Source: an uncultured virus (IMG/VR IMGVR_UViG_3300038312_000089)
Taxonomy: Duplodnaviria; Heunggongvirae; Uroviricota; Caudoviricetes
Virus record (IMG/VR): IMGVR_UViG_3300038312_000089
Reading direction: 5' to 3' (one strand)
DNA length: 64,000 bases
The stretch's first letter is position 1. Every line of letters begins with the position of its first letter. The position numbers and the translations under genes were made by a program. The notes under the pieces were generated by a model, which saw only the letters and a list, made by a program, of their open reading frames with translations, was not told where the DNA came from and searched no databases. This document shows positions 1 through 44,766 of the stretch, one piece after another.

Positions 1-279
1 GATGCCGCGAGAATCCGCCTCCGCAAGAACGCAAGCGGAACGGGTGACGGCTTGTTACGGCTCAACGGAGCGGAGTACGCCACCGCTACAGACGGCTCGA
101 TTGTGATTGATGATTTTACCACTGGCGACATCGAGATAAAGCTCATGGCAGCGGCAACACAGGAGCTTGTTCCGGGCAACTATGTTTACGATATCCAGCT
201 CATTACCGCAAACGAGGTGAAGACGCTAACATCGGGCGTGTGCAAGGTGACTGCGGATGTAACCAGGGCGACGGCATGA
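1..279 (+). CDS. 3' end of a long tail fibre/tip protein (partial; paralog of 32033..34156)
   Basis: Translation aligns with the C-terminus of 32033..34156 (LRLNGAEYATATDGSIVIDD...ADVTRA); first 98 nt are identical to 33878..33975. Confidence 0.8.
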   Translation, partial: DAARIRLRKNASGTGDGLLRLNGAEYATATDGSIVIDDFTTGDIEIKLMAAATQELVPGNYVYDIQLITANEVKTLTSGVCKVTADVTRATA

Positions 280-1076
280 CCGGCACACTATTAGTTGTAC
301 TCTCGGATACTCATATCGGTAGCAGTACCGCTGTATCGCCGCTATCCTTCACGGTCCATAACCGCTCAAGTTACGAAGCGCAGGTTATGGAAGCCAACCG
401 CCTCCAACGCTGGCTTTACACGAACTGGGTTGACTTCTTCGAGTACGTCAAAGAGAGAAAGAAAAAGAAACGCGTTATTGTTGTGCACCTGGGTGACGTA
501 ATAGATTTTAACCATCACGGGAGTACGCAGTTAGTGCAGGAAGTCGGCGATCAGGTGAAAATGGCAGTCGAGTTGTTAGAACCTTACCGCAACCTGGCTT
601 CCACCTTTGTCGGCATTCTTGGGACCGCCGCTCACGCCGGGCAAGACCACGCCACAGAAGTTGACTTGTACCGGCAACTCGGCGCGGATTACATTGAGCA
701 GCAGATGACCGTTGACATTGACGGCGTGACAGTTGATTTGGCTCACCACGGCAGGATTGGCACGCGCCCCTGGACTTCCGGCGCGGCAAGTCTGGCAAGC
801 GAGATTATGCTCGATTATGCGCAAAGTGGGATACCCTTGCCTAACTATATATTCCGTGGGCACTATCATCAGATTGATGACAGCGGTGGCAAGTTCGTCA
901 ATACGCGACTGATTCAGTGTCCGAGTTGGCAGTTGAAGACCACATTTTCAAACCGAGTCGCTGGCAATACAAGACGCTCTGACATCGGCGCGATATTGCT
1001 CAATGGCGGCAAGTTGGATCTAAGCAAGGCGCGTTACAAGGGGCAACCTGACGGGAGGAAAATAATTTGTCTATGA
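276..1076 (+). CDS. Calcineurin-like metallophosphoesterase
   Basis: SDTHIG, GDVID and GHYH metal-binding motifs; ATG at 276 overlaps the upstream stop. Confidence 0.8.
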   Translation: MTGTLLVVLSDTHIGSSTAVSPLSFTVHNRSSYEAQVMEANRLQRWLYTNWVDFFEYVKERKKKKRVIVVHLGDVIDFNHHGSTQLVQEVGDQVKMAVELLEPYRNLASTFVGILGTAAHAGQDHATEVDLYRQLGADYIEQQMTVDIDGVTVDLAHHGRIGTRPWTSGAASLASEIMLDYAQSGIPLPNYIFRGHYHQIDDSGGKFVNTRLIQCPSWQLKTTFSNRVAGNTRRSDIGAILLNGGKLDLSKARYKGQPDGRKIICL

Positions 1077-1294
1077 CCGAATACGAACTACTTGAAGAAC
1101 TGGCAAAGGAACTCTACCTGCCATCGCTTGACGCGGATGAAGTTACCGCCGCAATGGTTGCGGATTACACCGGAGTAAGCACCTCGCAGGCAATGCGCAC
1201 CTTACGAGCCAAAGAGTCGGCTGGCTTGCTCACGTCACGAATGGTCAAGATGCCGAATAATCATCCGGCTCGTGCTTACAGGAAGGCGGCGTAA
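1073..1294 (+). CDS. Small winged-HTH DNA-binding protein
   Basis: TAAMVADYTGVSTSQAMRTLRAKESAGLL is HTH-like; coupled to the upstream gene. Confidence 0.6.
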   Translation: MTEYELLEELAKELYLPSLDADEVTAAMVADYTGVSTSQAMRTLRAKESAGLLTSRMVKMPNNHPARAYRKAA

Positions 1295-1295
1295 C

Positions 1296-1493
1296 GTGCC
1301 AGTCTATACGTATCAATGCGCATCGTGCGGTCACGAGTACGAGTATTTTCAGCACTATACGGACGACCCGATCACCGTTTGCCCTGACTGCGAAACGCCG
1401 ACCTTACGCAAGACTTACACGCCGACGCCCGTTCACTTCAAGGGGCACGGTTATTACGTAACCGACAAGTACGATCCGGCGAAGGCGGGATAA
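1296..1493 (+). CDS. FmdB-family zinc-ribbon protein
   Basis: (M)PVYTYQCASCG...CPDC...FKGHGYYVTD signature. Confidence 0.8.
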   Translation: MPVYTYQCASCGHEYEYFQHYTDDPITVCPDCETPTLRKTYTPTPVHFKGHGYYVTDKYDPAKAG

Positions 1494-1675
1494 TGACCGA
1501 TGATATTCACGTTATACCAGTTTACGACTTGCACGAACATATTATTGGAGCGGAATGCCCTTGCGAGCCAACGGTAGAAGTCGAGGGCGCAATTCTGATT
1601 TACACTCACAATTCTTGGGATTGTCGTGAGGCGGTTGAGTGGGCTGAAGAGTTGTTGCACTTGCAACCTCAATAA
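1493..1675 (+). CDS. Small Cys/His-rich hypothetical protein
   Basis: Coupled ORF with HxxxxxCxCxP and H-N-S-W-D pattern. Confidence 0.55.
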   Translation: MTDDIHVIPVYDLHEHIIGAECPCEPTVEVEGAILIYTHNSWDCREAVEWAEELLHLQPQ

Positions 1676-1701
1676 CGCCTATTTGCAGTTATAACTGAAT
1701 C

Positions 1702-1870
1702 GGGGGTGACGGGCATCGTCGCAAAATTAGTTTAGGCAGCGATGTGGACAGAGAGTGGTTTGCGCAGACCCACACGCTGACAGTAAACAAAACGAGAGTT
1801 TTGAGCCGGTGCAATTCCGGTCTCGCTTAACAATTTTGTGAACGGCGGTTCGACTCCGCCCACCTCCACA
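1702..1870 (+). ncRNA. ssrA: Miniature tmRNA-like RNA (Ala acceptor stem, T-arm, P2 helix, short tag ORF)
   Basis: GGGGGTG/CACCTCC-A acceptor stem with G3:U wobble; T-arm GGCGG-TTCGACT-CCGCC; helix CGCAAAATT/AATTTTGTG; internal frame 1783..1830 VNKTRVLSRCNSGLA*. Confidence 0.75.
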
Positions 1871-1930
1871 GCCTCGTCTACCATGCGTAGAAAGAGATCT
1901 TTCACCGCTGATTAGGCGGTGAATGCATTT

Positions 1931-1962
1931 AAAAAAGCACCTACTGAATGCGGGTGCTTTTT
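1931..1962. terminator. Intrinsic terminator, probably bidirectional
   Basis: AAAAAAGCACC-loop-GGTGCTTTTT; preceded by a second hairpin TTCACCGC/GCGGTGAA. Confidence 0.75.
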
Positions 1963-2016
1963 GTTATACTCACAACGCAATCGCGAGACTAATTTCAATA
2001 TTGGTGCACAAAACGC

Positions 2017-2044
2017 TTGACATCTGCTCATAATTGTGTATAAT
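2017..2044 (+). promoter_or_regulatory. Consensus sigma70 promoter for the phage A early operon
   Basis: TTGACA-16 nt-TATAAT, then AGGAG RBS before ATG 2101. Confidence 0.8.
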
Positions 2045-2100
2045 CAACACAAAAATAAGAATTACCTAAAATTAAAAGATTAATATCAGAAAAGGAGCAT

Positions 2101-2289
2101 ATGTACGATAGATCAGATTTACACCTCATCCAGCAAGATTCAGAAAATCCGCAATCCAAGATCACCTGCCCAAAATGCGAGAGTTATCTCGTGGAGAGGC
2201 AGGGCGACCCGTGGACGTACACCTGTTTGGACTGTCTGAACACGTTTTCAGTCGGTCCAATGGACGATGACGATTCAATTCCATTTTAG
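2101..2289 (+). CDS. Small zinc-ribbon protein with acidic DDSIPF tail
   Basis: CPKC...CLDC; C-terminus resembles the SSB-Ct motif. Confidence 0.6.
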   Translation: MYDRSDLHLIQQDSENPQSKITCPKCESYLVERQGDPWTYTCLDCLNTFSVGPMDDDDSIPF

Positions 2290-2301
2290 AGAGGAGCAAC
2301 A

Positions 2302-2562
2302 ATGAACAACACCGCGTACAAGTTGAGAAAAATTTTGGAATCTGTCGAGCGTGTGATGAAAAGATATAACCCAGAGCGAGACCTTATCCCTAACACGCCG
2401 AGCGTCACGCATTCGGACATGACTGCATTAGAGGCGGTATCGGAACTAACAAAAATTGTTATGGGATTAGTTAGTGTGGTCGAAGGACTGCAGGAACGAG
2501 CGTTGGCAGATGACAGCGGAAGTTACGACGGTTTGATACCAGACGAGGAGCAGAAATGTTAG
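2302..2562 (+). CDS. Hypothetical protein
   Basis: RBS GAGGAG; operon context. Confidence 0.55.
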   Translation: MNNTAYKLRKILESVERVMKRYNPERDLIPNTPSVTHSDMTALEAVSELTKIVMGLVSVVEGLQERALADDSGSYDGLIPDEEQKC

Positions 2563-2843
2563 CAGAGTTTTTCGTAGGATTCGGAATTATCTGCATCCCG
2601 ATAACCCTGGGCGCACTGGCAACCGGCATTATCGAGACGATCCGAGAGCGGAGGGTGAGATGACTAACAACTATCGCGAACACTACATTTTCCAGCTCAA
2701 AAAGGAAAACCAGTCCCTGTGGGGAGAGTTGTCCGAGTTAGATCGGAACAGCCCTGAGTACAAATGCGTTAGAAAGGAGATCGAAAAAAACGACACTGAA
2801 ATATCCGCAATGCAAGACATCATCAAGAGAGCAAAGGAGCAAA

Positions 2844-3503
2844 ATGAACAAGTCAGAATCAATTCAGAACTTATCAGCAGCCTTATCTAAGGCACAAGCG
2901 GAAATGCCTGCTATCAAGTTTGACAGCAAGAATCCGTTTCTCAAAAACGATTATGCCAGTTTAGGCGCGATTATAGCGGGGGCGCGACCCGTAATCGCGA
3001 AGCACGGTTTGTCAGTCAGTCAACTCACTTTTGGCGAAGAGGGCGTGGCTGGCGTTGAAACCGTGCTAATGCATACATCCGGCGAATGGATCAGCAGTTC
3101 TATCTCAATGCCAGTCGGCGAAGAAAAAGGCAAATCCAGCGCACAGGTTGCAGGTTCAATTGTAACCTACTTGCGCCGGTATTCTCTCGCTTCAATACTT
3201 GGTATCTATTCAGACGAAGACGGTGACGGCAATAAAGTTGAACCGGAACGCAAGCCGACCCGGGTTGCATTGCCGAAAGAAAAATCAGTTGACGATCCGA
3301 TGACCATTGAACGCGCAATGAAAGTCCAGAATAGCGAAGGCGTAAGTTACGGTGACATTCCCAACGACAAGTTGCAAGCGATGATTATCGGAATCAACAA
3401 GGGCTTGCAGAACGGTTTGGACGACGAGAAACGCGCCGAATACCTGGAAAAGAAACAGGCTATCGGTGTCATTCTCAAAGCGCGCGCTAACAAAGAAATT
3501 TAG
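2844..3503 (+). CDS. erf: ERF-family ssDNA-annealing recombinase
   Basis: KNPFLKNDYASL and GSIVTYLRRYSLASILGI...EDGDG motifs. Confidence 0.9.
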   Translation: MNKSESIQNLSAALSKAQAEMPAIKFDSKNPFLKNDYASLGAIIAGARPVIAKHGLSVSQLTFGEEGVAGVETVLMHTSGEWISSSISMPVGEEKGKSSAQVAGSIVTYLRRYSLASILGIYSDEDGDGNKVEPERKPTRVALPKEKSVDDPMTIERAMKVQNSEGVSYGDIPNDKLQAMIIGINKGLQNGLDDEKRAEYLEKKQAIGVILKARANKEI

Positions 3504-3572
3504 GCGCGGGTTTCCTCCTCCTTTTCCCGCGAAGCCTGCTGGCCGGCTTGGTAGACCAGCAGAAAGATTGAG

Positions 3573-3944
3573 ATGGACATTTACGAAAAGATTGAAAAAT
3601 ATTCAGATTTAGGTGTAGGAATTGACCTGATTAATCAAGAAAAACAATCACTAATTGATCAAGTTTTGACGCAAGAAATCAAAGAAAAACTTGCAGAAAT
3701 TGATGCAGAATTTGATCCAAAAATTGAGCAACTTTCGCAAGAAAAATCAATGCTGGAAGCCGACATCAAACAGGAAGTTTTGACCGCTGGCAGAACCGTC
3801 AAAGGCACATATCACAGCTTTGTTTGGTCGAAACCGCGCGTAAGCTGGGACACGAAAGCCCTGGACGGTTACGCCGCAGCTCATCCCGAAATCCAGGTAT
3901 TCCGGAGTGAAGGTTCTGCAAGCGTGAGTGTGAGGCGGGCATGA
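3573..3944 (+). CDS. Gam/Gp157-like coiled-coil protein
   Basis: Coiled coil plus VSWDTKAL...SVSVR C-terminus, next to ERF. Confidence 0.45.
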   Translation: MDIYEKIEKYSDLGVGIDLINQEKQSLIDQVLTQEIKEKLAEIDAEFDPKIEQLSQEKSMLEADIKQEVLTAGRTVKGTYHSFVWSKPRVSWDTKALDGYAAAHPEIQVFRSEGSASVSVRRA

Positions 3945-4321
3945 ATCCCAGCGACTACTACCGCATGAAATCTGCTGAAATCAAGGAAGCCGACATCCGC
4001 CTGGTTGCCGCTTGTATGAGCGACCACGTTGGCGAAGAAAACGCTGTCAGGCTGGAATCGCTTGTCTCACGAAGTGGATTAGGTGAACGCCAGGTACGAG
4101 ACATCCTCGAAGTATTGGTCAAGGATTATGGATGGCCGATAGGTGCTCACGCTGGCAAAGCGGGGCGTTGGATTATCGAGACCGAGCAGGAACGCTGGCA
4201 CGTTGCCAATGAACTGTTGAGCCGCGAGAATGAGTTGAGAGCACGCCGAAAGGCAATCGAACAGGCACAGTTACCGGCTCGATTGGAGCTCGATAGAGCA
4301 CCGCAAATGGGGCTGTTCTGA
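3941..4321 (+). CDS. Winged-HTH protein (distant homolog of 38766..39140)
   Basis: HTH-like segment, AGKAGRW, ends QMGLF; precedes the replication gene as in phage B. Confidence 0.5.
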   Translation: MNPSDYYRMKSAEIKEADIRLVAACMSDHVGEENAVRLESLVSRSGLGERQVRDILEVLVKDYGWPIGAHAGKAGRWIIETEQERWHVANELLSRENELRARRKAIEQAQLPARLELDRAPQMGLF

Positions 4322-5100
4322 TGGCATACACAAACACTGATTACAGTTTCTGGACTAATCCAAAAGTCAGGGCAGCTGGTAAAGACGCGGCGTTCCTTTA
4401 CATTGCTGGCAATGGTTTTTGTAACGAGTATCTAACGGACGGCTTCATTTCAGACACCGACATCGAAACAGTTGCTTTCAACGCATTCCAGCGACAGCCA
4501 AAAAAAGCGGTTGAATCGTTAGTCAGAGCGGGATTGTGGGATCGCGTTCCTGGCGGTTATCAAATTCACGACTATCTGGACTACAACAAAAGCAAGCAAG
4601 AGATTGAAGAATTGCGAAGCAAAAAATCATATGCTGGTAAGAAGAGCGGTCAAGCACGTGCTCAAGCAAGTGCTCAAGCACGTGCTGAACCAGATGATAT
4701 AGCACCTGCTCAAGCACCTGCTCAAGCAAAAACCAAGCAATATAACTATGTCTCTATATCTAATCTAAATAATACTACTCTACCCCCCTTACCCCCCAAC
4801 GAAATTGTTCAATTTGGGAATGTCTATAATGACATAACCGGCAATGATCCGCAATTCACGCCGGAAGAAGTTGACGCTATTCAGGAAATCATCAAGGCTG
4901 GAGGCACGACCGCCGATTACCGCAAGGCTCTTGAAGGTATGCGAGCAAAGCGCTACACAGTTACCACGATGGCATCTGCGTTGAAGTGGACGCTTGGCGA
5001 TATTGAGAAGCGCAACAATGGTTACAAGCCTACGAAACAACTTAGCGCCGGTCTGGATGAGATTCTGGCAGACGCGCCGATATTCGCGGAGGACAAATGA
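4321..5100 (+). CDS. Phage replication initiator
   Basis: N-terminal TDGFI...LVRAGLW...YQIHDYLDYN domain; internal iteron repeats. Confidence 0.75.
   Translation: MAYTNTDYSFWTNPKVRAAGKDAAFLYIAGNGFCNEYLTDGFISDTDIETVAFNAFQRQPKKAVESLVRAGLWDRVPGGYQIHDYLDYNKSKQEIEELRSKKSYAGKKSGQARAQASAQARAEPDDIAPAQAPAQAKTKQYNYVSISNLNNTTLPPLPPNEIVQFGNVYNDITGNDPQFTPEEVDAIQEIIKAGGTTADYRKALEGMRAKRYTVTTMASALKWTLGDIEKRNNGYKPTKQLSAGLDEILADAPIFAEDK
4650..4728. repeat. 12-nt iteron array (TCAAGCAcgTGC), putative origin of phage A
   Basis: About five copies inside the initiator gene, followed by AT-rich sequence. Confidence 0.7.
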
Positions 5101-5284
5101 GCACACAATCTATGAGAGCAGAACAGGCGAGATTTGAGACGTGCCAGAATTGCAAGCGGTGGCATAAATGGGATTTTGATCCTAATGATGAATTTGGCAG
5201 GTGTGGCAAGTATGGACAGCGCTATGCTATGACGCGCGCTTATGACACATGCGTAAATTTCAAGGCGAAAAAAGAGGCGAAGGC

Positions 5285-5710
5285 ATGAGCACGCTTGCAG
5301 AAACTACGTTGGTCATGAAACGGCTCTCGTCTGCTTACGGCCAACCGGTAGACATTGAGCGAGCACGAGCTTACCATCAGGTACTCGGTCACAATTCACG
5401 AATGGTGTTGGCAGAAGCGGCGACAATCTCATTGACTCGTGGGTCGCAATTCTTGCCGAAGCCGGTTGAGTTGATCGAGATCATCCAGCGTAACAACCTG
5501 ACCACTCGGTGGATGGGTGCTGACAAGTTCGATGAGCGGGCTTGGTGGCTTGCGTTTGTGAAAGGCTATGTCACAAGCGATGAGTTCAGCCAGGCTGACG
5601 TTGACACCATTTATTCAGGCGTGAAGGGTTATGAGCCATACAAGGAAGTCAAACAAATACCCGATAGCCCTGAAAAATGGCGCAAGGCGTATGAGCAGGT
5701 GACGAAATGA
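5285..5710 (+). CDS. Helicase loader/inhibitor-like protein
   Basis: Follows the initiator; AYG...FLPKPVEL pattern. Confidence 0.5.
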   Translation: MSTLAETTLVMKRLSSAYGQPVDIERARAYHQVLGHNSRMVLAEAATISLTRGSQFLPKPVELIEIIQRNNLTTRWMGADKFDERAWWLAFVKGYVTSDEFSQADVDTIYSGVKGYEPYKEVKQIPDSPEKWRKAYEQVTK

Positions 5711-5885
5711 CCGCCTCTCACATTTGCGCAGATTGCAAGTATTTTAAAACCTCGTTCACAGTACCACGAGGGTCGGAACCAAAAGAGATCATATTCGAAT
5801 GTCAGCAAGGGCACGCGCCGATAGCATGGTTCAACGGCGAGAATTGCCAGGAATATCAACCTAATCAATCAGAGCAACAGGAGCA

Positions 5886-6440
5886 ATGATGGAATTTAGG
5901 AAATTTGACAAGATCGCAAGGCTATCCCGTGAGATTGTGGTCACGGAAAAAATTGACGGCACGAACGGCTTAATTGCCATTGGTGAGGATGGCGAGTTTC
6001 AAGTTGGCTCTCGTAATCAATGGATCACGCCAGAAAAAGATAACGCTGGTTTTGCAAGGTGGGCATACGCTCATAAGGATGAATTAATGCAACTGGGAGT
6101 AGGCTTTCACTATGGCGAATGGTGGGGACAAGGCATTCAACGTGGATACGGCTTGAAAGAAAAGCGTTTCAGCCTGTTCAATACTTCCCGTTGGTCTGAT
6201 GATACTGTGCGCCCTGCCTGCTGTCACGTTGTGCCAGTTTTGTACACAGGCATTTTTGACACGGAGATGATTCAGATTTGGCTGGATTGGCTTGGTCGCT
6301 GTGGGAGCGTGGCTGCCCCGGGGTTTATGAATCCAGAAGGGGTGGTTATCTACCACGTTGCAGGAAACGTCTACTTCAAAAAGACAATCGTAGGGGATGA
6401 TCAACCGAAATCAATCAATCAAAAACAGGAGCAAAAATGA
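5886..6440 (+). CDS. Compact RNA ligase (Rnl2-like adenylyltransferase domain)
   Basis: TEKIDGTN motif I, GSR, YGEW, EGVV, FKK. Confidence 0.85.
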
Positions 6441-6931
6441 CAAGTCATTTAATGTGTAGTCATTGCAAAGCAGATAAATCAGTAGACGAGTTTTCGGTTC
6501 ATAGTCGTAATAAAAATAGGGAAGGGAGGGCTTATGTTTGTAAAGAGTGCGATAACAGTGAGAAAAGAAATTCGTACATTCCAAAAGTTAGAAAATATTC
6601 AAGTAACATATCGCGATTTGAAAAATCATACCGAGTCAATCCGGTTACAGGTTGTTGGGATTGGATTCGTTCAACTTGTAATGATGGATATGGAGAGTTT
6701 TCATTCAGGAGCGTAACAGACAACAAAATGAAAATTGTTCGCGCAAACAGAGTCGCTTGGATGCTTTTTCGTGGAGAGATTCCTGACGGATATTATGTTT
6801 GTCACAAGTGTGACAATCCAAAATGTGTAAACCCCGATCACTTATTTATTGGAACGCCTGCGGACAACTCGAAAGACATGGTAAACAAAAACAGACAATT
6901 CAAAGGGAGTAGAAAATGTATTCAAAAATAA
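6437..6931 (+). CDS. Free-standing HNH endonuclease with N-terminal zinc finger
   Basis: [35 protein letters not shown]. Confidence 0.9.
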
Positions 6932-7287
6932 TTATTATCGGCAATTTAGGACGCGATCCAGAACTTAGATTTTTGACAGACGGCACACCCGTCACGACAT
7001 TCTCAGTAGCGACTTCGCGCAAGTTCGGCGACAAAGACGAGACCACCTGGTTTCGCGTTACTGTTTGGAACAAGCAAGCGGAGTCGTGCAACCAATATCT
7101 GCACAAAGGCTCGAAGGTGTTGGTCGAGGGTCGCTTGAGACCAGACGAAAGTGGCAATCCCACCGTGTTCCAGCGCAAGGATGGTAGTTGGGGCGCAAGT
7201 TACGAGGTAACGGCGGAAACCGTGCGATTTTTGACACCGAAGGGCGAAGAAAATGCCGCGGCGGTTGATGAAGAATATCCGTTTTAG
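6916..7287 (+). CDS. ssb: Single-stranded DNA-binding protein
   Basis: [24 protein letters not shown], acidic EEYPF tail. Confidence 0.95.
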
Positions 7288-7657
7288 GAGAGGTGAGAAA
7301 TGACAGAAAAATCAAAAGTTGTTTTTAAAAAGTGCAATGGATTCTACCGAGTTTATGTTGACGGTTGGAATTTAGGGACAATTATTGAAGAACAGTATGA
7401 GTGGTTCTTTGAAACGTTCACGTTTACTATTCGTGCAAACAAAAAAGTGCTCCGTAAGATCGCAAAGAAGTTGAAGCAGCTGAATGGAGGTAATCAATGA
7501 GCAGAGTACGAGAGCGTTACTTATGGGTGGCGGGAATCATGTTCCTTTTCGCATGTTTAGCCCTCGCTCTTGATTGGGTCATATTGCAAACGGTGTTGGT
7601 ATATTGGATTGGCTTATGCATTGGGCGTTTCGTTGAAAGCGGTAAGGAGCGTGAACA

Positions 7658-8245
7658 ATGAGCAACTGTAAAACTTATGGCGAATGGTGCGCCGAGATCA
7701 AGCCAGACGATCCAAGAAGTGAAATTCTGAACAGCTGGCGACAAAGCGCGTACGAGCAGAACAAGCGCATTGCAGAGCTTGAGGAACAAGTCTGGAATTT
7801 GAACTTAGAAAACGAGCGATTGGAAGAAGCCTACTGGATAGACGAAACAATATCACCTGATGGGACGTTGAAGCCGAGTGTTCGCAAATTGTTAGAACGT
7901 CTTGAAAAGGCTGAAACAGATTTGAGATTAAGTGATGATTTGGTTAAAGCGTTAGACAACCGCATTGTCAAGCTTGAGGCGGCGCAGCGCTGGAGAGTTG
8001 TTGCCGATGGAGAGTTGCCAGATGACGATGTAGAGGTATTTGTTCTGCTTTACGGGTCTTCTGTCTCCACAGGAAAGCACTATCGCGATGCGCGTCATCT
8101 TGACCTCGAAGATAATTCCTACGATCTTAACTATGTCATTGGCGACTGTTGGTTGATAGGTGATGACGAAATCACGTATGCGCAACACTGTTACAACGCA
8201 GTCACCCATTGGATGCCACTGCCACAGCCACCGGAGGTGAAATAA
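7658..8245 (+). CDS. Coiled coil plus DUF551-like domain protein
   Basis: C-terminal VTHWMPLPQPP. Confidence 0.7.
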   Translation: MSNCKTYGEWCAEIKPDDPRSEILNSWRQSAYEQNKRIAELEEQVWNLNLENERLEEAYWIDETISPDGTLKPSVRKLLERLEKAETDLRLSDDLVKALDNRIVKLEAAQRWRVVADGELPDDDVEVFVLLYGSSVSTGKHYRDARHLDLEDNSYDLNYVIGDCWLIGDDEITYAQHCYNAVTHWMPLPQPPEVK

Positions 8246-8937
8246 TGTGTAAATTTTTTAGTTTTGTAACAGACCCAGTCAACCATCCAGCAGAGTATTA
8301 CTACTTGGACTGGCAGTATCGCAAGGAAAACCTCAAAGCGGATGACGCTGACAGTCACTCGCACATCTGTAAAGAGTTTAACTTGCGTGAGGATGTGTGC
8401 AACAAGTATGAGTTCAATCCGCTGACGAAGAGGTTTGTAATTGACCAGATTAATGCCGAAAGGGACGACAGCAAAGCGGCGGAGAAATGGGCAAACCGAC
8501 TGGACTACAAGACAGTGGTTGAGCCGCTGATTATCAAACCGATTGTTAATCCGCTAGAGTCGCCAAAAGCGGAAAAACCAACCAACGAGCAGATTGGTTG
8601 GCTGAAAGAGTGGACTTCGGTCTGGACTTCGGTCGGGGCTTCGGTCTTGGATTCGGTTAGGACTTCGGCATGGGCTTCGGTCAGGGCTTCGGTCTTGGAT
8701 TCGGTTAGGGCTTCGGTCTGGGATACGGTCAGGGCTTCGGTCTTTGATTCGGTATTGGCTTCGGCATGGGCGTATATTTCAACTTTTTTCGACGTCGAGT
8801 ATAAATTCGACTATTCTTCCGCCATCAAGCTGTGGGAGTCAGGACTTGTTCCTTCATTTGACGGCACGACATGGCGGTTGCACAGTGGCGAGAACGCGGA
8901 CGTTGTGTTCGAGTGGACACCGGAGGTGAAGGAATGA
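8245..8937 (+). CDS. Phage protein with internal tetrapeptide (xxSV) repeats
   Basis: MCKFFS start; WTSV/WASV/LDSV repeats encoded by 12-nt units at 8611..8772. Confidence 0.7.
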   Translation: MCKFFSFVTDPVNHPAEYYYLDWQYRKENLKADDADSHSHICKEFNLREDVCNKYEFNPLTKRFVIDQINAERDDSKAAEKWANRLDYKTVVEPLIIKPIVNPLESPKAEKPTNEQIGWLKEWTSVWTSVGASVLDSVRTSAWASVRASVLDSVRASVWDTVRASVFDSVLASAWAYISTFFDVEYKFDYSSAIKLWESGLVPSFDGTTWRLHSGENADVVFEWTPEVKE

Positions 8938-9140
8938 ACATTATCAAAGTGATTGTGGATGAGTTGCCGAGAAGCGCAAGCAGCTGTCCTGCAACCGATA
9001 GATTTTGGCCTGGTTTCGACGAGGTGAAAGACGTTACCTGCAAGTTTACTGGTGTGGTTCAAATGAATGTATTTGAATTTTTTTCGGAACGCCGCCCGAA
9101 TTGCCCGTTGGTGGAAGCGGAAAAGGAGCGTGAGGAATGA
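8934..9140 (+). CDS. Small Cys-containing protein (shared with 40436..40630)
   Basis: CPATDRFWPGFDEVK...RPNCPL. Confidence 0.65.
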   Translation: MNIIKVIVDELPRSASSCPATDRFWPGFDEVKDVTCKFTGVVQMNVFEFFSERRPNCPLVEAEKEREE

Positions 9141-9396
9141 GTATAAGCGAAAAAGCGAATGACCTATTGAATAAATTTGGCAGAACCCAATCCGATTTTA
9201 TGGTTTGGAACACGCCAGATAATGCAGTAGCACGAGATAAAGCTCGTCAAGAAATCTCTGACTACATTGAGGAGCTTGAGGCGGAAAATGACCAACTCAC
9301 CGCTCATAGTGACATAGAGCGGCAGGGTGATAAGTCGTCTAACGATACACAAACGCAAACAATCGTGTACGGGAAAGAGAATTCGGAGGTGCAGAA

Positions 9397-9828
9397 ATGA
9401 CCAAAGACGAATTGAAATCAATATTAGAACAGCATAGGTTGTGGGTAGAAGGCAACGGAGGCAAACGGGCCGACCTGCAATATGCTAACCTGCAAGATGC
9501 TAACCTGCGAGGTGCTGACCTGCCATGCGCTGACCTGCAATATGCTAACCTGCGAGGTGCTGACCTGCGAGGTGCTGACCTGCGAGGTGCTGACCTGCTA
9601 GGTGCTGACCTGCGAGGTGCTAACCTTGATTATTCCTGCCTCCCCCTTTGGTGTGGTAGCAAGGGCATGATAGTTGACCGGCGCATTGCGGCACAAATAG
9701 CGGCTCACTTTTGCGCGTTGGATTGCGATGATGCTGACTATCAGGCGGCACGAACCGCAATATTGGAGTTCGCAAGGACGAGCCACAGGGCAATGGATTT
9801 GGGACTGGTAGAGGAGCGTGAGGAATGA
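9397..9828 (+). CDS. Pentapeptide-repeat protein
   Basis: Tandem A(D/N)Lxx repeats; 15-nt DNA repeat. Confidence 0.9.
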
Positions 9829-10391
9829 GTAAAGAAATAAAAGTACCATTGGATGTTGCTCGGTATCAGGCTCATAGATTGCTGGATCTGCTGGAGCCAG
9901 TATGTGAGCGGATTGAGATTGCGGGATCCATCAGACGGCAATGCCTGGAAGTAGGGGATATCGAGCTCGTAGCTATCCCCAAACCTACCCGGGGCTTGTT
10001 TTTCCATAAATGGGACACCCAGATAATCATTGACAGGATTTTTGAGATTGATAAGCTGAGTTTTCTACGAGAGTCTGACGAACCGCTGTTTACCAAACGC
10101 GGTGAATGGTACGCCCAGTTTACGATATTTGGCATGAAGGTTGACCTTTTCATGACTACACCCGAGAAGTGGGGTTGCATCTTCATGATCAGGACTGGCT
10201 CCGCAGATTTCTCGAAGCGGATGATGACAAAGAAATCGGGGGGCGGCTACTGCCCGGATCATCTGTACTTCAAGAATGGAAGATTGTGGGATGGCGAAGA
10301 GGTTCTGGATACACCTGAAGAGGATGATGTTTTCAGGCTGTTAGGCGTTCCCTGGATGGATCCGGTAGAGAGGAGCGTGAGAGATGAGTGA
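9825..10391 (+). CDS. Minimal PolX/Pol-beta-like nucleotidyltransferase (palm and thumb only)
   Basis: [40 protein letters not shown]. Confidence 0.85.
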
Positions 10392-10701
10392 AAAAACTAT
10401 TGAGGAATTGGAATCAGAAATTGAATGTTTGCGCAAAGAAGTTTCTTACTGCGAGGGAATGATGGGTTGGGGGCGCGACTTTGTATTTTGGAGTGCCAAA
10501 CGGTCAGTATGTTTAGACAAAATTGAAACAATAGAGGCAGAAATTAGGAGACGAGGCAAATGAACAGATGGCGTGCCGAATACGATGATGGGATAAGTGT
10601 GCCGTATGAGGCTTTGAAAAAGTTGGTTAAACGTGTACGAAAGGAGCGTGAGAGATGAGTGAAATGTCAGACAATTTTAAGCAGTTGCGGAAGGGGGCGG
10701 C

Positions 10702-11046
10702 GTGAGTAGTCAGAATAAGCCGACAATCGCTGAATTAGCCGCTCAGTACAAGGCGCGTGGATACGCGGATTATTACGCCTGGGACCGCTACATTGCAGAT
10801 ACTGGATTGAATCCGATGGTAGACGCGAAAGAGTTTTATCGCATTTATGCCAACATTACGGCTGAAATTGTTGGACCCAAGCTACCGGCAAGTTGGGTCC
10901 CAACGCACATTGACACGTTGTGTGGTCGTCAGGTCCAGATAAAACACGAGAATGGCGTTTATTTTATGGTGTGGGATAACGGCGTGACTGGCAGCGATCC
11001 GGACGCTTTGCACCCTGCCGACAGATATGCGGAGGTGCAACAATGA
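10702..11046 (+). CDS. Hypothetical protein
   Basis: ORF with RBS in the early-gene cluster. Confidence 0.5.
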   Translation: MSSQNKPTIAELAAQYKARGYADYYAWDRYIADTGLNPMVDAKEFYRIYANITAEIVGPKLPASWVPTHIDTLCGRQVQIKHENGVYFMVWDNGVTGSDPDALHPADRYAEVQQ

Positions 11047-11295
11047 CCCTACTCGACATAGCAATCGTGATTGTTGCGCTTGTGGGAATTGTGCAGCTCG
11101 TGCTGTGTTTGATGGGTGAAGAATGAGCATATCTGAAATTGTAGAATCCTACCGTGAGCAGTTGCTCGATTGGTACGCTCAAGGCAGATCATACTTCTGG
11201 ATGGCAATGCAGATCGGACTGTCAGACCGTTCGTCGTCTGCCGTGTCAGTTTGGTTCAGACGGCAGGGCATCTGGCGAAAACCGAAAGGGGAAAA

Positions 11296-11634
11296 GTGAG
11301 CGATAGCAAACTTGAAGACTTGTTCGCATTTCAGCTTGACGCGCTTGGGCTGACTGGTTATGTCCGAGAATATCCGGCGATACCAGGGCGCAAGTTCCGT
11401 TACGATTTCGCGTTTGTGAAGGAGCGGCTGCTGGTCGAGGTGAATGGCGGAACGTACGCGAAGGGTGCACATTCTACCGGTCAAGGGATCGCACGGGACT
11501 ACGAGAAAATCCGATTGGGGCAGGATTGCGGATGGAAGGTGTACCCGTTTGATGGCAAGGCGATCAAGAGCGGTGAAGCGGTTGAAGTAATCAGGCAGGC
11601 ATTGGAGATAAATGAAAATTCCGACATTCGATGA
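11296..11634 (+). CDS. PD-(D/E)xK endonuclease (DUF559/Vsr-like)
   Basis: REY...RKFRYDFA...LLVEVNGG...H...RDYEK...GW. Confidence 0.8.
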   Translation: MSDSKLEDLFAFQLDALGLTGYVREYPAIPGRKFRYDFAFVKERLLVEVNGGTYAKGAHSTGQGIARDYEKIRLGQDCGWKVYPFDGKAIKSGEAVEVIRQALEINENSDIR

Positions 11635-11765
11635 AATGATAATTGGCAAAACTATGATCGTCAAAGTTAAAATACCGGATAAGTATGTGTTGAGGTACGC
11701 ATTTGCGCGATTTCTAATCCGGTTGGCAGCAAGGGTGCTGGGTTGCCGCATTAAGTTGGAGTCGC

Positions 11766-11951
11766 TTGACCAATCCGGCGGCTGAAATATGCCGGATGCT
11801 CGATGAGGAATCCTTACGGGTACTCGTCACAGCATTACGGGCGATCACAGACAGCCCGGAAGGTTACGGCACAATCGAAGTAAACGTAGCGAAAAGGCAG
11901 GTCAACAACGTCAAGGTAACAACGAGCCTGAAGGCGCATAGAGACGAATAA
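11766..11951 (+). CDS. Small DUF2292-like protein
   Basis: GYGTIEVNV...VKVTTSLK; lies directly before a structured leader. Confidence 0.45.
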   Translation: MTNPAAEICRMLDEESLRVLVTALRAITDSPEGYGTIEVNVAKRQVNNVKVTTSLKAHRDE

Positions 11952-12004
11952 TTAGCAAGTTACAACTGAATAGCAGTACCAAAGCGTGACTCACGCGGAA
12001 CATA

Positions 12005-26764: not shown

Positions 26765-28416
26765 AATTCGACAGCATAGCGTGTGAATTCAGGCTTCAGG
26801 ACGCGTGGGTTGATCTGAACCAATACCGGCTTCAGGCAGCGGGCATAAACGCGTCAACGGGCATTCGCAGCAGCAGACCGATCGACCGGGTGGCTTCAAC
26901 GGGTCAACTGACGCTTGTACTGCACAACGTCAATAATCTGTTCACTCCGGGTCACGTCAACTGTATGCCTGGATTCCAGTCGGGAATGCGGTTCAGACTT
27001 GCGTTTACCTACGAGGGGCGAAGAATGACCCGTTTTTACGGCATTGTACCGCCTGATGGCATTGAGATAGGCACAACGCAGTTCATGACGGTGACAAGGG
27101 TCAAAGTGCTCGATTATATGGAGCAGTTTGCGGTGCATCAACTTAACCTGCCAGCCTACACAACCAACAAACGGTTGGAGCAGGTGGTTGCCTTGATCCT
27201 TGCCAATATGCCGGTCAAACCGCTCTCAGTTTCGTATGGCACGGGCAAGTCAACGTTTGCAAGTGTGTTTGATACCTTGCGGGATAAGACCCGCGCAATG
27301 CAGGAAGTCAGTAAGGCGACACTGTCCGAGTTGGGTTACGTCTACCTGAAACAGACCAATGACTGTGATGAGGTGCTGACAGTCGAGAATAGGGGGCAGC
27401 GAAGCGGTAAAACGTTGGCAAAAGTCAACGTACGGACTACAACAGTGACAGACACCCGTATAACGCAAGCCGGCGATGTCCGAATTACAGAAGACGGCGA
27501 CACTCGCGTTCTGCAGCCTGAGTTTACAACGGTTGATGCCGTGTTCAATAACAACTTCCGCTCGGTTGTTGTAAAGCATGCGGAGGCTTATTACAACCAG
27601 GTTGACACGAAAGCTTATCCGCGCAAGATAGACACAAGTAATGTGATTCTGTTTTCGCTCGAACGCGCATTAGAGGTCGGAGCGAATCAGACTGTCACCA
27701 TGAAGGGGCGATTCAGAGATCCGAACCAGGAAGCGCAAACAGTGGCGGCTCTATCCACTGTTACGCCGGTTGCCGGCACAGACTACATCTTCAATGCGGC
27801 GGAGGATGGGTCGGGTGCAAATATCACGGCTGATCTGCAAGTGACGGCGGTCTATGGCGCAAATGGTGTAGATTACACGCTCACAAACAAAGGCTCAATA
27901 ACCGGCTATGTCACGCAGTTGCTGGCACGGGGCAAAGGCGTTTATATCTATCGCCCCGTCGAAAAAACGACAGAGGATTCAGCACTGGTTGCCACTGATG
28001 GGGCACGAACGCTCAACCTCGACTTGTTATATCAGGATAACACCCTTCAAACGGTTGACATCGGTTCGGCGCTACTCGCAAAGCATAAGCAGAAATACAC
28101 GACCGTTCAGAGCATAACGCTTGTTGCCAACAGAGATGATACCTCCTATCCGAACGCTTATAGAGGTTACTACAAAGACTTTCTGCTCAATGCGTTCCTG
28201 GATCTGAACATCGGTGACAAGATAAAAATCATCGTACCGAGCGCGGGCATTGATCAGGATTATTTTATCCAGTCGATCGATTTTTCAGTCACGTCTGGCG
28301 ACATCGTCACTTATTCATACGGGCTACAGAATTCGATGTACGAAACATACGACGCCTGGATTCTTGGTGACGCGACCTACGGCGTGCTGGATACCACCAC
28401 GATCTTGGGTTATTAG
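26761..28416 (+). CDS. Tail tip/hub protein
   Basis: Follows TMP; ends WILGDATYGVLDTTTILGY. Confidence 0.65.
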   Translation: MKFDSIACEFRLQDAWVDLNQYRLQAAGINASTGIRSSRPIDRVASTGQLTLVLHNVNNLFTPGHVNCMPGFQSGMRFRLAFTYEGRRMTRFYGIVPPDGIEIGTTQFMTVTRVKVLDYMEQFAVHQLNLPAYTTNKRLEQVVALILANMPVKPLSVSYGTGKSTFASVFDTLRDKTRAMQEVSKATLSELGYVYLKQTNDCDEVLTVENRGQRSGKTLAKVNVRTTTVTDTRITQAGDVRITEDGDTRVLQPEFTTVDAVFNNNFRSVVVKHAEAYYNQVDTKAYPRKIDTSNVILFSLERALEVGANQTVTMKGRFRDPNQEAQTVAALSTVTPVAGTDYIFNAAEDGSGANITADLQVTAVYGANGVDYTLTNKGSITGYVTQLLARGKGVYIYRPVEKTTEDSALVATDGARTLNLDLLYQDNTLQTVDIGSALLAKHKQKYTTVQSITLVANRDDTSYPNAYRGYYKDFLLNAFLDLNIGDKIKIIVPSAGIDQDYFIQSIDFSVTSGDIVTYSYGLQNSMYETYDAWILGDATYGVLDTTTILGY

Positions 28417-28425
28417 GAGACAACT

Positions 28426-28926
28426 ATGACATATACAACACCACGAACGTGGGTAACAGGCGAAACCGTCACAGCGGCAATGATGAACGCACAAGTCAGT
28501 GGGAATGTGGCTCACATTTATGAACTGGCACGAACAAGAACCATCACGATTGAAGCAGTGGGCGTTGAAGAACCAACCTATAAAGGGACGGTACACAGAT
28601 ATGTTATTCCAAGCGCATTTAATGGCGGAGTCATCACAGCGGCTGACATGGCAATAGCAACCGCAGGCACGGCGGGAACGGTCATCATGCAGTTGGAACG
28701 GGACAGGGGCGGCACGGTACGCAAACTGCTATCAACCACAGTAGTTGTTGACCCTACCGAGCGGACATCTTACACCGGTCGAAGCGGTGTTATTGACACG
28801 ACCTATGCCACGCTTGCGACAGGTGACTGGCTAAACGTTGTGCTTACTGATCACGGCGGGGGAACGGTGAGTGCAAACGGCGGGCAAAAGGGATTGTACG
28901 CAATTGTGACAGTGAGTATCACCTAA
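28426..28926 (+). CDS. Minor tail protein
   Basis: TYTTPRTWVTGETVTAAMMN start typical of tail-fibre adaptors. Confidence 0.6.
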   Translation: MTYTTPRTWVTGETVTAAMMNAQVSGNVAHIYELARTRTITIEAVGVEEPTYKGTVHRYVIPSAFNGGVITAADMAIATAGTAGTVIMQLERDRGGTVRKLLSTTVVVDPTERTSYTGRSGVIDTTYATLATGDWLNVVLTDHGGGTVSANGGQKGLYAIVTVSIT

Positions 28927-29537
28927 TGATAGTCAACACATCTAACGTTGATTTTGTGATCACACCTGCCTTCACATTGCCGACTGGTACACACCGATAT
29001 GTGCTGTTTATGATCGGTGATATGGGCAACGCGAGTTCTTACTTTCCGAACTCCGTAGACATTGCAGGCACAGCGGCAACGATGATCACAAAAACAGAGC
29101 CAACCGCAGAAGCGGCTCAAATTTGGGGAGCGAACATTCCTGACAGCGTAGCGGCTGGCTCTTACACGATCACGTTTGACGGCACAAGTTTTCAGCGTTT
29201 TCATATCGCCGTATTTACCGGCGTAAGCAGTGATCCAGTTGTTGACTCGGATTCATTCCGCAACGGGAATTCAGACAGTGATGGTGATAGTTTGACGGTT
29301 GATTGTGTCGGCGGGGGCTGGGTGCACGACATTGTTTGGGCAGGCGCAGCGAAAACCAACGATGGGGCGCAAACCGGTATTTACAACGTCACTGGCAGAG
29401 CTGGTATCAGTTACAAAAGCGGGCTGGCTCACGGCACTACCTCGATGAGTTGGACGTGGACGGACTCCCGCTCCGCTCACGCGGTTGTATCACTCAGGCC
29501 GTTCCGTGCTACTGCCGGCGGCGTAGTTATTTTTTAG
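28926..29537 (+). CDS. Minor tail/receptor-binding protein
   Basis: Thr/Ser/Gly-rich beta composition; gene order. Confidence 0.5.
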   Translation: MIVNTSNVDFVITPAFTLPTGTHRYVLFMIGDMGNASSYFPNSVDIAGTAATMITKTEPTAEAAQIWGANIPDSVAAGSYTITFDGTSFQRFHIAVFTGVSSDPVVDSDSFRNGNSDSDGDSLTVDCVGGGWVHDIVWAGAAKTNDGAQTGIYNVTGRAGISYKSGLAHGTTSMSWTWTDSRSAHAVVSLRPFRATAGGVVIF

Positions 29538-30032: not shown

Positions 30033-31211
30033 CACTCCCCTTTGGCATTGACATAAGCAAACATCAAGGCACAAACGACTTCGCGAAAATGCGAGCAAAT
30101 ACGTCTTTTGTGTTCGTCAAAGCGACCGAGTCTTGGGGCTACACAGACCCAAAGTTCTACGCAAACTGGCAGGGTTTGGTCGGTCACAATAGGGGCGCAT
30201 ACTGCTACGTCTGGCTATCAGACGACCCTCTCCGACAGGCTAACCACCTTATTGATATTGTCACGCAAGCAGGCGTTGACTGGAAGTATGATCGGCTCGT
30301 GCTTGACCTCGAAAAGAGCGGACACGGGCTATCAAAAGCAGAAGTTTCAAGACGGGTACTCGTGATGATGGAGCGGATAAAAGAAATCACGGGGCGTTAT
30401 CCGATTCTTTACTCTCGCAAGTACTGGGTTCAGGACAATATGCTTATCAACGACCCACGCCTTATAAACGCCGACTGGTGGTTAGCATACTATCGAACCG
30501 CGTTACCATATCCGCTTTACACTCCCGAAATGCCGTCACCTCCGTTGATGCCTAACGGTGTGAGTAAGTGGCTGATTCATCAAACTTGTGAGCGGGGCAA
30601 GGGCAGGGAAGTCGGCGTTGGATCGTACTACGTTGATCAAGACAGGTTCAACGGAACACGGGCTGAATTGAACAGCTTCTTTGGGCGTGGTACATATGTT
30701 TATCTTCCAATCGTCACTACTCCAAAGCCAGTTGAAGACGACTGGACTGGACTACTGAGAGTGAAGTTGTGGTCACAGCACGACCCGCGTTGGGGCGGCG
30801 ACCGCATGGGTGAATCCTACTGGAGGCTCACAGAAAAAGGCTGCCTGGTTACCAGCGTGGCTATCNNNNNNNNNNNNNNNNNNNNNNNNNNNNNNNNNNN
30901 NNNNNNNNNNNNNNNNNNNNNNNNNNNNNNTGCTATTTCCTGAGATTCAAAAGGATCTCGCTGACTACACCTGGTATTGGAATGGTACTGGCTGGGAAAC
31001 ACAGGCACGCTCCATACTGAGTAGCAAACGCCCTGTGTTAGGTCTCGTGGATATGTACGCAGGCGGTGCGCTCAACCAGCATTGGGTATTGATCGTCGGC
31101 GAACACTCTGATAGTTGGTGGGCGGTTGATCCTGATACGGGCACGTTGATTAATCTCAGTAAGTACCAAAATAAAGTATATCGAATCGTTAGCTATCGGA
31201 GGACTAAATGA
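30029..31211 (+). CDS. Endolysin: GH25 muramidase plus C39-like peptidase domain (interrupted by an assembly gap)
   Basis: GIDISKHQG, FVKATE, LDLE; GCLVTS...HWV...DP; near-identical to intact 62044..63291. Confidence 0.85.
30866..30930. other. Scaffold gap (65 N)
   Basis: N run; the homologous interval 62881..63010 is 130 nt long. Confidence 1.
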
Positions 31212-44607: not shown

Positions 44608-44675
44608 TTTAAGGTTTCTCACTGGTGTTTTTGGTGAAAATAGCATGGCGGTATAGTAGAATAACCATTGTGCTT

Positions 44676-44748
44676 GCCCCCATAGCTTAATGGAACGAGC
44701 TTTTCATTTGCGATGATTAAGATGGGAGTTCGAGTCTCCCTGGGGGCA
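44676..44748 (+). tRNA. Atypical tRNA-like gene, anticodon TGC, no G3:U70
   Basis: GCCCCCA/TGGGGGC-A acceptor stem, D-arm, T-arm GGGAG-TTCGAGT-CTCCC; anticodon stem has only 3 pairs. Confidence 0.75.
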
Positions 44749-44766
44749 TTCACCTTTTATATTACC

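Follow-up and report, generated by a model that had tools for sequence, protein, structure and literature searches.

The stretch of DNA analysed here (the window; 64,000 nucleotides) consists of two siphovirus-type units in tandem, each about 32-34 kb long, as judged from PHROGs and Pfam matches and from repeats; the spacing of these repeats, ~31-34 kb, also indicates that the two units are related to each other. Unit 1 extends from ~240 to 34150. It starts with an exonuclease-like gene and a set of small genes, which are followed by the tRNA-like RNA to be discussed here, Erf and a replication initiator; farther downstream it contains an RNA ligase, HNH, SSB, terminase, portal, tape measure and endolysin. 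Unit 2 starts at ~34400 and comprises integrase, a CI-like repressor, a Cro-like HTH protein, a tRNA, terminase, capsid and tail genes. A search of the whole window with the covariance model R1 (see below) detected the tRNA-like RNA in unit 1 only. The first-pass annotation had attributed it to a small phage, which is roughly correct for the size of one unit, yet the window holds two of them.

A few other features of the window deserve mention. Its first 279 positions are a 90-93% identical copy of 33878-34156, the 3' end of a 707-aa gene with which unit 1 ends; since the window opens inside this copy, a third related unit probably lies upstream. Nine tandem units of 15 nt (9458-9652) are found inside a 143-aa pentapeptide-repeat gene (9397-9828), and a run of 65 N (30866-30930) inside the endolysin gene. 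An RNA-ligase-family gene (5886-6440; PF09414, 6.2e-15) shares the early region with the tRNA-like RNA; the two may be connected through RNA repair. In unit 2, the tRNA at 44675-44749 is called Ala, with the anticodon TGC; its pair 3:70 is C3:G70, not G3:U70, and CCA is absent from the gene. By the textbook, AlaRS should not charge a tRNA with C3:G70.

The slot of the tRNA-like RNA separates the exonuclease/small-gene block from the Erf operon (Table 1). A 60-aa gene (1493-1675) ends 27 nt upstream of it. The -10-like hexamer just before G1 may, by its sequence and position, be the RNA's own promoter. The terminator-like hairpin behind the trailer was out of reach of the first terminator scan, because its loop is longer than 8. 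The PHROGs scan revealed no integrase next to the RNA in the window. Nor did any of 125 ORF translations match SmpB (60 compared with PHROGs, 65 with Pfam, some ORFs being in both sets), which agrees with the earlier statement that the window has no smpB gene.

Table 1. Features of the tRNA-like RNA gene and its neighbourhood, lengths of its relatives and positions of two full-size tmRNAs
Feature	Position in the window, or contig	Strand	Remarks
-10-like hexamer TATAAC	1690-1695	+	5/6 match to TATAAT; ends 6 nt before G1
RNA gene, complete tmRNA-type tRNA-like domain (TLD)	1702-1868	+	167 nt
Acceptor stem, 5' strand	1702-1708	+	G3 = 1704; fold, RF00023 alignment, family alignment
D-loop analogue, tmRNA-type, without D stem	1709-1718	+	aligned to RF00023 5' consensus
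P2 helix, 5' strand	1719-1728	+	folds; variant in X18
Variable arm, three hairpins	1729-1831	+	103 nt; folds; holds the proposed tag frame 1783/1789-1830
P2 helix, 3' strand	1832-1841	+	folds
T arm	1844-1860	+	5-bp stem, loop TTCGACT; covariation at each of its 5 pairs in the family
Acceptor stem, 3' strand, and discriminator A1868	1861-1868	+	sequence, covariation; CCA not encoded
Trailer swapped along with the RNA between alleles	1869-1933	+	65 nt; in X4 a joint 1869>1933 with 112 other letters
Terminator-like hairpin and T run	1934-1968	+	script search; identical in L001 254-296
Perfect sigma-70-type promoter	2017-2044	+	12/12 matches, spacer 16; next operon: Zn-ribbon gene, Erf, replication genes
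Relatives, 66-67 nt from G1 to discriminator	L001, L004, L008, L013, L048=L049=L196, L050, L200		
Relatives, 68 nt	L003, L006=L047		
Relative, 71 nt	L051		
Relative, 73 nt	L002		
Relative, 78 nt	L215		
Relative, 84 nt	L007		
Relative, 90 nt	L010		
Relative, ~64 nt	L053, locus 6414-6479		
Full-size tmRNA	L210, 1617-2024		
Full-size tmRNA	L214, 2001-2410		

The RNA gene has all the elements of the tRNA-like end of a tmRNA. Its acceptor stem comprises 7 bp (1702-1708 with 1861-1867), of which G1704:T1865 is the G3:U pair. CCA is not encoded, since the bases after the discriminator are CAG. The D-loop analogue is a loop of 10 nt. P2 (1719/1720-1728 with 1832-1840/1841) has 9-10 bp, including one G.U, and closes ~103 nt, which are predicted to fold into a hairpin at 1737-1779 and two small ones at 1789-1802 and 1803-1825. 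The acceptor with G3:U, the missing D stem, the T arm and P2, as described in the first-pass annotation, were all recovered; so were the internal hairpin 1737-1779 and an open frame at 1783-1830 with the translation that had been given for it. The minimum free energy (MFE) fold of the entire RNA retains acceptor, P2 and T arm (z -2.3; 2 of 200 shuffles were as stable), and the arm enclosed by P2, if folded alone, forms its three hairpins with a z of -2.65, equally stable shuffles again being 2 of 200.

The Rfam tmRNA model RF00023 scores positions 1702-1871 with 47.3 bits (E 1.3e-15) at a gathering threshold of 47, i.e., with a margin of 0.3 bits. The alignment, however, comprises the TLD and P2 only: 87 nt stand for 288 core positions of the model, and the RNA has 167 nt as against 374 model positions. 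The pseudoknots PK1-PK4 are not aligned, and the predicted folds, which are not pseudoknot-specific, yield three plain hairpins. ARAGORN reported no tmRNA in the window; its single hit was the tRNA at 44675. Of the two programs suggested earlier for checking the RNA, Infernal with RF00023 thus supports it and ARAGORN does not. No other Rfam family came near its threshold across 1600-2100. The family model R1 scores the RNA with 50.5 bits (E 2e-8). The window RNA is a real phage gene for the alanine-accepting tRNA-like end of tmRNA, having both its fold and the alanine identity set (G3:U70, A73).

Relatives were gathered via the Erf and exonuclease-like proteins, which yielded 54 loci. The search for TLDs then combined a simple finder program, two 3'-end pattern scans and R1, a covariance model built from 11 relatives, with the window and phage DS6A (see below) left out. 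In 18 IMG/VR contigs (15 distinct sequences) the equivalent slot is occupied by a TLD-shaped RNA of ~64-90 nt that has a stub hairpin only; the window copy is the sole long form of the family. None of the copies encodes CCA. In an alignment of 16 rows (the window, 14 relatives and DS6A) standard pairs are formed in 192 of 192 cells of the acceptor and T stems; slid controls reach 41-61%. Seven of these 12 pairs change on both sides, and the covariation score was reached by 0 of 500 shuffles. Covariation in relatives, which had been proposed as a check, is therefore evident. G3:U and the discriminator A are present in all 16 rows. With L053 counted, 15 of 16 sequences of the family have both, and 13 of 16 have the canonical T loop.

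The deviating members are of two kinds. L003 (3992-4059), L006 (3376-3443) and L010 (3710-3799) have non-canonical T loops (GGCAGTA or TGCAAT). In the same three the D-loop analogue is without its GG and reads AAGTGTCG instead of AGGGATCG; among the alanine-type members, GG is lost in 3 of 3 with a non-canonical T loop and in 0 of 12 with a canonical one. This joint change may be either a joint loss or a covariation of the D-loop/T-loop contact. L053 differs in the acceptor: it has no G3:U, its discriminator is U, and R1 gives it 32.9 bits. It is either a non-alanine member or a decayed one. L010 harbours in addition an int-alpA RNA (2175-2243; RF02996, 45.1 bits versus 35.8).

Many of the copies have signals of their own. 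A -10-like hexamer (at least 5/6 to TATAAT) ends 5-8 nt before G1 in 8 of 16 copies, and a terminator-like hairpin is found within 140 nt in 9 of 16, both counts being made without a shuffle control; these boxes and terminators suggest stand-alone small-RNA genes. The 14 alanine-type sister sequences (66-90 nt) and DS6A leave no room for a tag. They show that the function of the family needs none.

Broader searches added little to this family. The INPHARED records of cultured phages gave no match to 1400-2100 or 1-12000 and, for the RNA, T-arm fragments only. An exact 27-mer of the long form found no match in IMG/VR. A 17-mer with one N hit 19 loci there, of which a single one was real (L073, the same contig as L001). 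L061 and L067 were rejected as relatives, being tRNA-like elements of another kind that lie on the opposite strand. L235, found via a 62-aa downstream protein, has no TLD. In genome contigs, the degenerate 17-mer produced chance matches among the matches listed; in the 80 genome-contig loci taken from them, the only TLD is that of an ordinary tmRNA, 364 nt long, from a Saprospiraceae MAG (L119). A 24-mer of the 3' end matches 29 IMG/VR loci, 19 of which have just the 3' end of a tmRNA gene.

The most informative relative is L001, a near-identical phage: the stretches on both sides of the slot are 97.8%, 99.4% and 97.3% identical to the window. In the slot itself, a TLD-only RNA of 66 nt takes the place of the 167-nt one. 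Its first 17 nt, which span the D-loop analogue, are those of the window bar one base, a 20-nt hairpin replaces P2 and the arm, and the T stem differs by one compensatory pair. The trailer differs too, as far as the common terminator. Directly after this terminator L001 has, relative to the window, a 2-kb insert (297-2295) with what appears from the sequence to be a reverse-strand integrase-like ORF and with a tRNA-Arg(CCG) at 1351-1422. The trailer after the short allele opens with TGGAGATTCACTA in both L001 (131-168) and L051 (7694-7720). In L001 the acceptor 3' motif CACCTCCACT is repeated 27 nt downstream; either a trace of recombination or part of a second element could account for the repeat.

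Contigs of four sequencing runs were compared with window positions 1400-2300. The long form occurs in three DNA runs, each of a different study (X2, X3 and X4), and in the metatranscriptome X18. X3 and X4 hold both alleles, the short one of the L001 type being recognised by a joint 1706>1841 that contains 34 other letters. Together with L001, this shows that near-identical phages swap the alleles. The long allele, including its 103-nt arm, is nearly unchanged in five samples. One X4 contig combines G1708A with C1861T, a compensatory change of acceptor pair 7-66; in X18, G1721A turns the G.U of P2 into A-U. Three changes fall into hairpin 1, and one of them, T1743C, breaks a predicted pair. 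The sole change inside the proposed frame, A1797G (X18), is synonymous. The X18 contig (213 nt, covering 1647-1859) comes from an RNA library, in which DNA carry-over is possible; it demonstrates presence in that library but not transcription, and is a weak hint at most. A gapped, insert-agnostic scan of metagenomes returned L233 only, a 34,585-bp contig of a fermentation metagenome that is 100% identical to window 1-4368. Probably it has the same source as the window, and the scan thus provides no independent long form.

A TLD without a message is not entirely new. Hudson, Lau and Williams listed "Mycobacterium phage DS6A (TLD only)" in 2014 and, citing Mao et al. 2009, mentioned that a similar TLD-only molecule strongly inhibits tmRNA, whether it can be charged or not, perhaps by titration of SmpB (PMC4131195, available in part). 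In the accessible portion of PMC11915505 the DS6A form is called CDS-less and is stated to inhibit endogenous tmRNA in E. coli. We located the DS6A RNA at ~28478-28560 of JN698994.1, unannotated, between gp33 and gp34 (tmRNA Website tmID 11587). When 27500-29500 was searched, R1 scored the locus with 35.8 bits (E 2e-6) and RF00023 with 43.2 bits, which is below threshold. Like the window RNA, that of DS6A is phage-encoded, is a complete alanine-type TLD without D stem and lies between early genes; it has no tag template, and the window RNA probably has none either. It differs by its ~80 nt and short arm from the window RNA with its 103-nt, three-hairpin arm and a P2 of 9-10 bp. The phage lineages differ as well, and a family with swappable alleles is documented on the side of the window.

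With the one-piece tmRNA (SsrA) of RF00023 the window RNA shares G3:U70, A73, the D-loop analogue, the canonical T arm and P2. Unlike SsrA, it has neither aligned pseudoknots nor a supported tag frame, an ARAGORN call or a nearby smpB. Template-less tmRNAs are also found in organelles, to wit in jakobid mitochondria and as ~65-bp plastid genes of Mallomonadaceae (PMC11915505, as far as excerpted). Like the window RNA, these retain the TLD; they have little besides it and no tag frame. According to the same excerpt they differ in being accompanied by a targeted SmpB and in their presumed benefit to the cell. For the phage copy, a use directed against the host system, or one that gets around it, is more likely.

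Full-size tmRNAs of phages are on record for the Bxz1 group of mycobacteriophages and for Bacillus phage G (PMC4131195, in its available part). Among the viral contigs we encountered further ones in L210/L214 (408-410 nt), L213/L219 (406 nt) and L232 (330 nt). The TLD of L210/L214 is nearly identical to that of the L001 mini allele; L213/L219 and L232 have at least the searched 3' 24-mer (T arm, acceptor) in common with the window. All of these, however, are of full length, have ordinary tag frames as read from the sequence, and their interiors are unlike the window insert. The tag of L210/L214, again as read from the sequence, is unusually long. In the flanks of L210, L213, L214 and the mini-TLD locus L215, none of 17 ORFs had an informative Pfam match; one NUMOD3 motif was all that appeared. 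The tmRNAs of L210/L214 may be phage-encoded, as their nine flanking ORFs lack an informative Pfam match and show one NUMOD3 motif. Among the papers listed by full-text searches for phage TLDs or interference with trans-translation and for DS6A, none describes such a family or a long-armed form.

What, then, does the window RNA do? It belongs with the tag-less mimics of the DS6A type, not with the working tmRNAs. We consider it probable, if far from certain, that it is a mimic of tmRNA that engages SmpB and AlaRS and interferes with the rescue-and-tag system of the host. The first-pass annotation had offered a decoy of this kind as one of its two readings, and it fits the evidence and the one published precedent, DS6A. 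In mechanistic terms, the RNA would keep the TLD and P2 of tmRNA, and a lineage-specific arm of three hairpins would replace the pseudoknots and the tag template. It would be made as a small stand-alone transcript or be cut from the end of the upstream operon. The host would trim it and add CCA, and the host's AlaRS would charge it with alanine via G3:U and A73. SmpB of the host, probably EF-Tu too, would bind it. It would then compete with the host tmRNA, and tagging, perhaps also rescue, would be blunted during infection. The competition is postulated by reference to the inhibition reported for the DS6A-type molecule. The arm would be a variable, swappable appendage and not a message.

The strict retention of G3:U and A73 suggests that charging matters. 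Since inhibition was independent of chargeability (PMC4131195, from the part available), pure titration of SmpB may be too simple a description. The T loops of L003, L006 and L010 and the acceptor of L053 further imply that not every member is able to act as a tRNA-like substrate of the ribosome. The use of the 103-nt arm, despite its near-unchanged retention, is not explained by mimicry.

A second reading, which we deem unlikely though worth keeping in sight, makes the RNA a helper instead of an inhibitor. The alanylated TLD would enter the stalled ribosome together with SmpB and take over the nascent chain. Without a template, the peptidyl-RNA would drop off or be hydrolysed; the ribosomes would be set free, and phage proteins made from broken mRNAs would escape the degradation tag. 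Charging and entry into the ribosome are compatible with the conserved G3:U and A73 (15 of 16) and the canonical T loop (13 of 16), yet the latter is lost in three members. We know of no release mechanism for a template-less tmRNA, which also counts against such a rescuer. The CDS-less tmRNAs of organelles are conserved along with SmpB and thus probably still assist with incomplete mRNAs (PMC11915505, accessible portion). The DS6A-like molecule, however, was reported to inhibit and not to rescue (PMC4131195 and PMC11915505, both in the parts available).

Distinctly less probable is a function outside translation, i.e., a processing or stabilising signal shaped like a tRNA, by which RNase P, RNase Z or the CCA enzyme would be brought to the transcript of the upstream operon in order to cut its end or to cap it. 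The t-elements of plant mitochondria provide a likeness. The RNA does lie exactly between two operons, 27 nt past the stop of the 60-aa gene, the RNA-library contig begins 55 nt upstream of G1, and L053 has the shape without the alanine identity. Neither RNase P nor RNase Z, however, needs the AlaRS determinants G3:U and A73 that are kept in 15 of 16 sequences. A mere processing signal would not account for the conservation of the tmRNA-specific D-loop analogue and of the linker before the T arm either, and the -10-like boxes (8 of 16 copies) and the terminators within 140 nt (9 of 16) of the RNAs' own equally argue against it.

The other reading of the first-pass annotation, a natural minimal tmRNA with a GLA-ending tag, fares worse and appears very improbable to us. 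The hairpin 1737-1779 would stand for PK1, translation would resume at AAA 1789 after UAAAC, and a tag of 13 codons would end at UAA 1828. The geometry is indeed suggestive: a hairpin, an A-rich linker of 9 nt, an open frame whose stop is preceded by a hairpin, and U/A at -5/-4. The element also exceeds the Rfam tmRNA threshold, and A1797G, as the only in-frame change, is synonymous; one synonymous change, however, carries no statistical weight for a tag. The upstream U85/A86 context matters in E. coli tmRNA (PMC2481249, as excerpted). In the window RNA, UA at -5/-4 is a feature of 2 nt that is base-paired in the MFE fold.

The frame itself is what chance alone would give. Of 5000 dinucleotide shuffles made from the insert, 4505 (0.90) contained an open run of 13 or more codons closed by a stop; frame 0 of the insert is open over the full 103 nt, and frame 2 lacks stops altogether. 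A resume codon beginning with A is unusual. Moreover, the proposed message is buried in predicted pairing: the MFE fold pairs 24 of 42 frame nt and the UAAAC context as well, and the Rfam alignment and the centroid fold pair the stop codon as an extension of P2. With 1 nt between the stop and P2, the helix would presumably have to melt for the ribosome to get there. ARAGORN found no tag, and comparison of the insert with the interiors of five full-size tmRNAs revealed no likeness, the scores being at or below the shuffle means. In the sister alleles there is no frame whatsoever to be conserved, and a near-identical phage exchanges the 167-nt allele for a 66-nt one. The arm looks structural rather than coding. 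No antisense targets of the arm of at least 12 nt were seen within the window.

It would be a long shot to assume that a working, pseudoknot-free minimal tmRNA with the tag (A)KTRVLSRCNSGLA and one hairpin for PK1 shares its phage backbone with a tag-less 66-nt allele. If true, the two would be a natural on/off pair, less than 170 nt would be enough for trans-translation, and the phages would choose between tagging and blocking.

Finally, we give next to no credence to a functionless remnant of host ssrA at an integration or recombination scar, which the 19 of 29 IMG/VR loci holding a tmRNA 3' end alone as att-type fragments and the second acceptor 3' motif in L001, 27 nt downstream, might call to mind, since the acceptor stem is complete and covaries on both strands, the slot, conserved in 18 contigs, lies within the early region and has no adjacent integrase in the window, many copies possess a -10-like box and a terminator, and the long allele persists in five samples with few changes, one of them compensatory; the deleted host ssrA that had been named as a possible refutation is thus discarded.

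Tag-less mimics of tmRNA had been published for one phage only, DS6A. What is new here is a family of such RNAs in a fixed slot, the cassette-like exchange of a 66-nt and a 167-nt form between near-identical phages in the same communities, and a large structured arm. Standard annotation misses RNAs of this type: ARAGORN finds none here, and Rfam passes the long copy only. The family is nevertheless conserved and covarying, and it resides in temperate-type siphophages from digesters and fermenters. An allele turnover of this pattern is typical of genes that are engaged with host systems. The locus makes phage interference with ribosome rescue directly testable, and the allele pair of 66 and 167 nt offers a natural comparison for what the arm adds, including the long-shot case of a minimal tmRNA.
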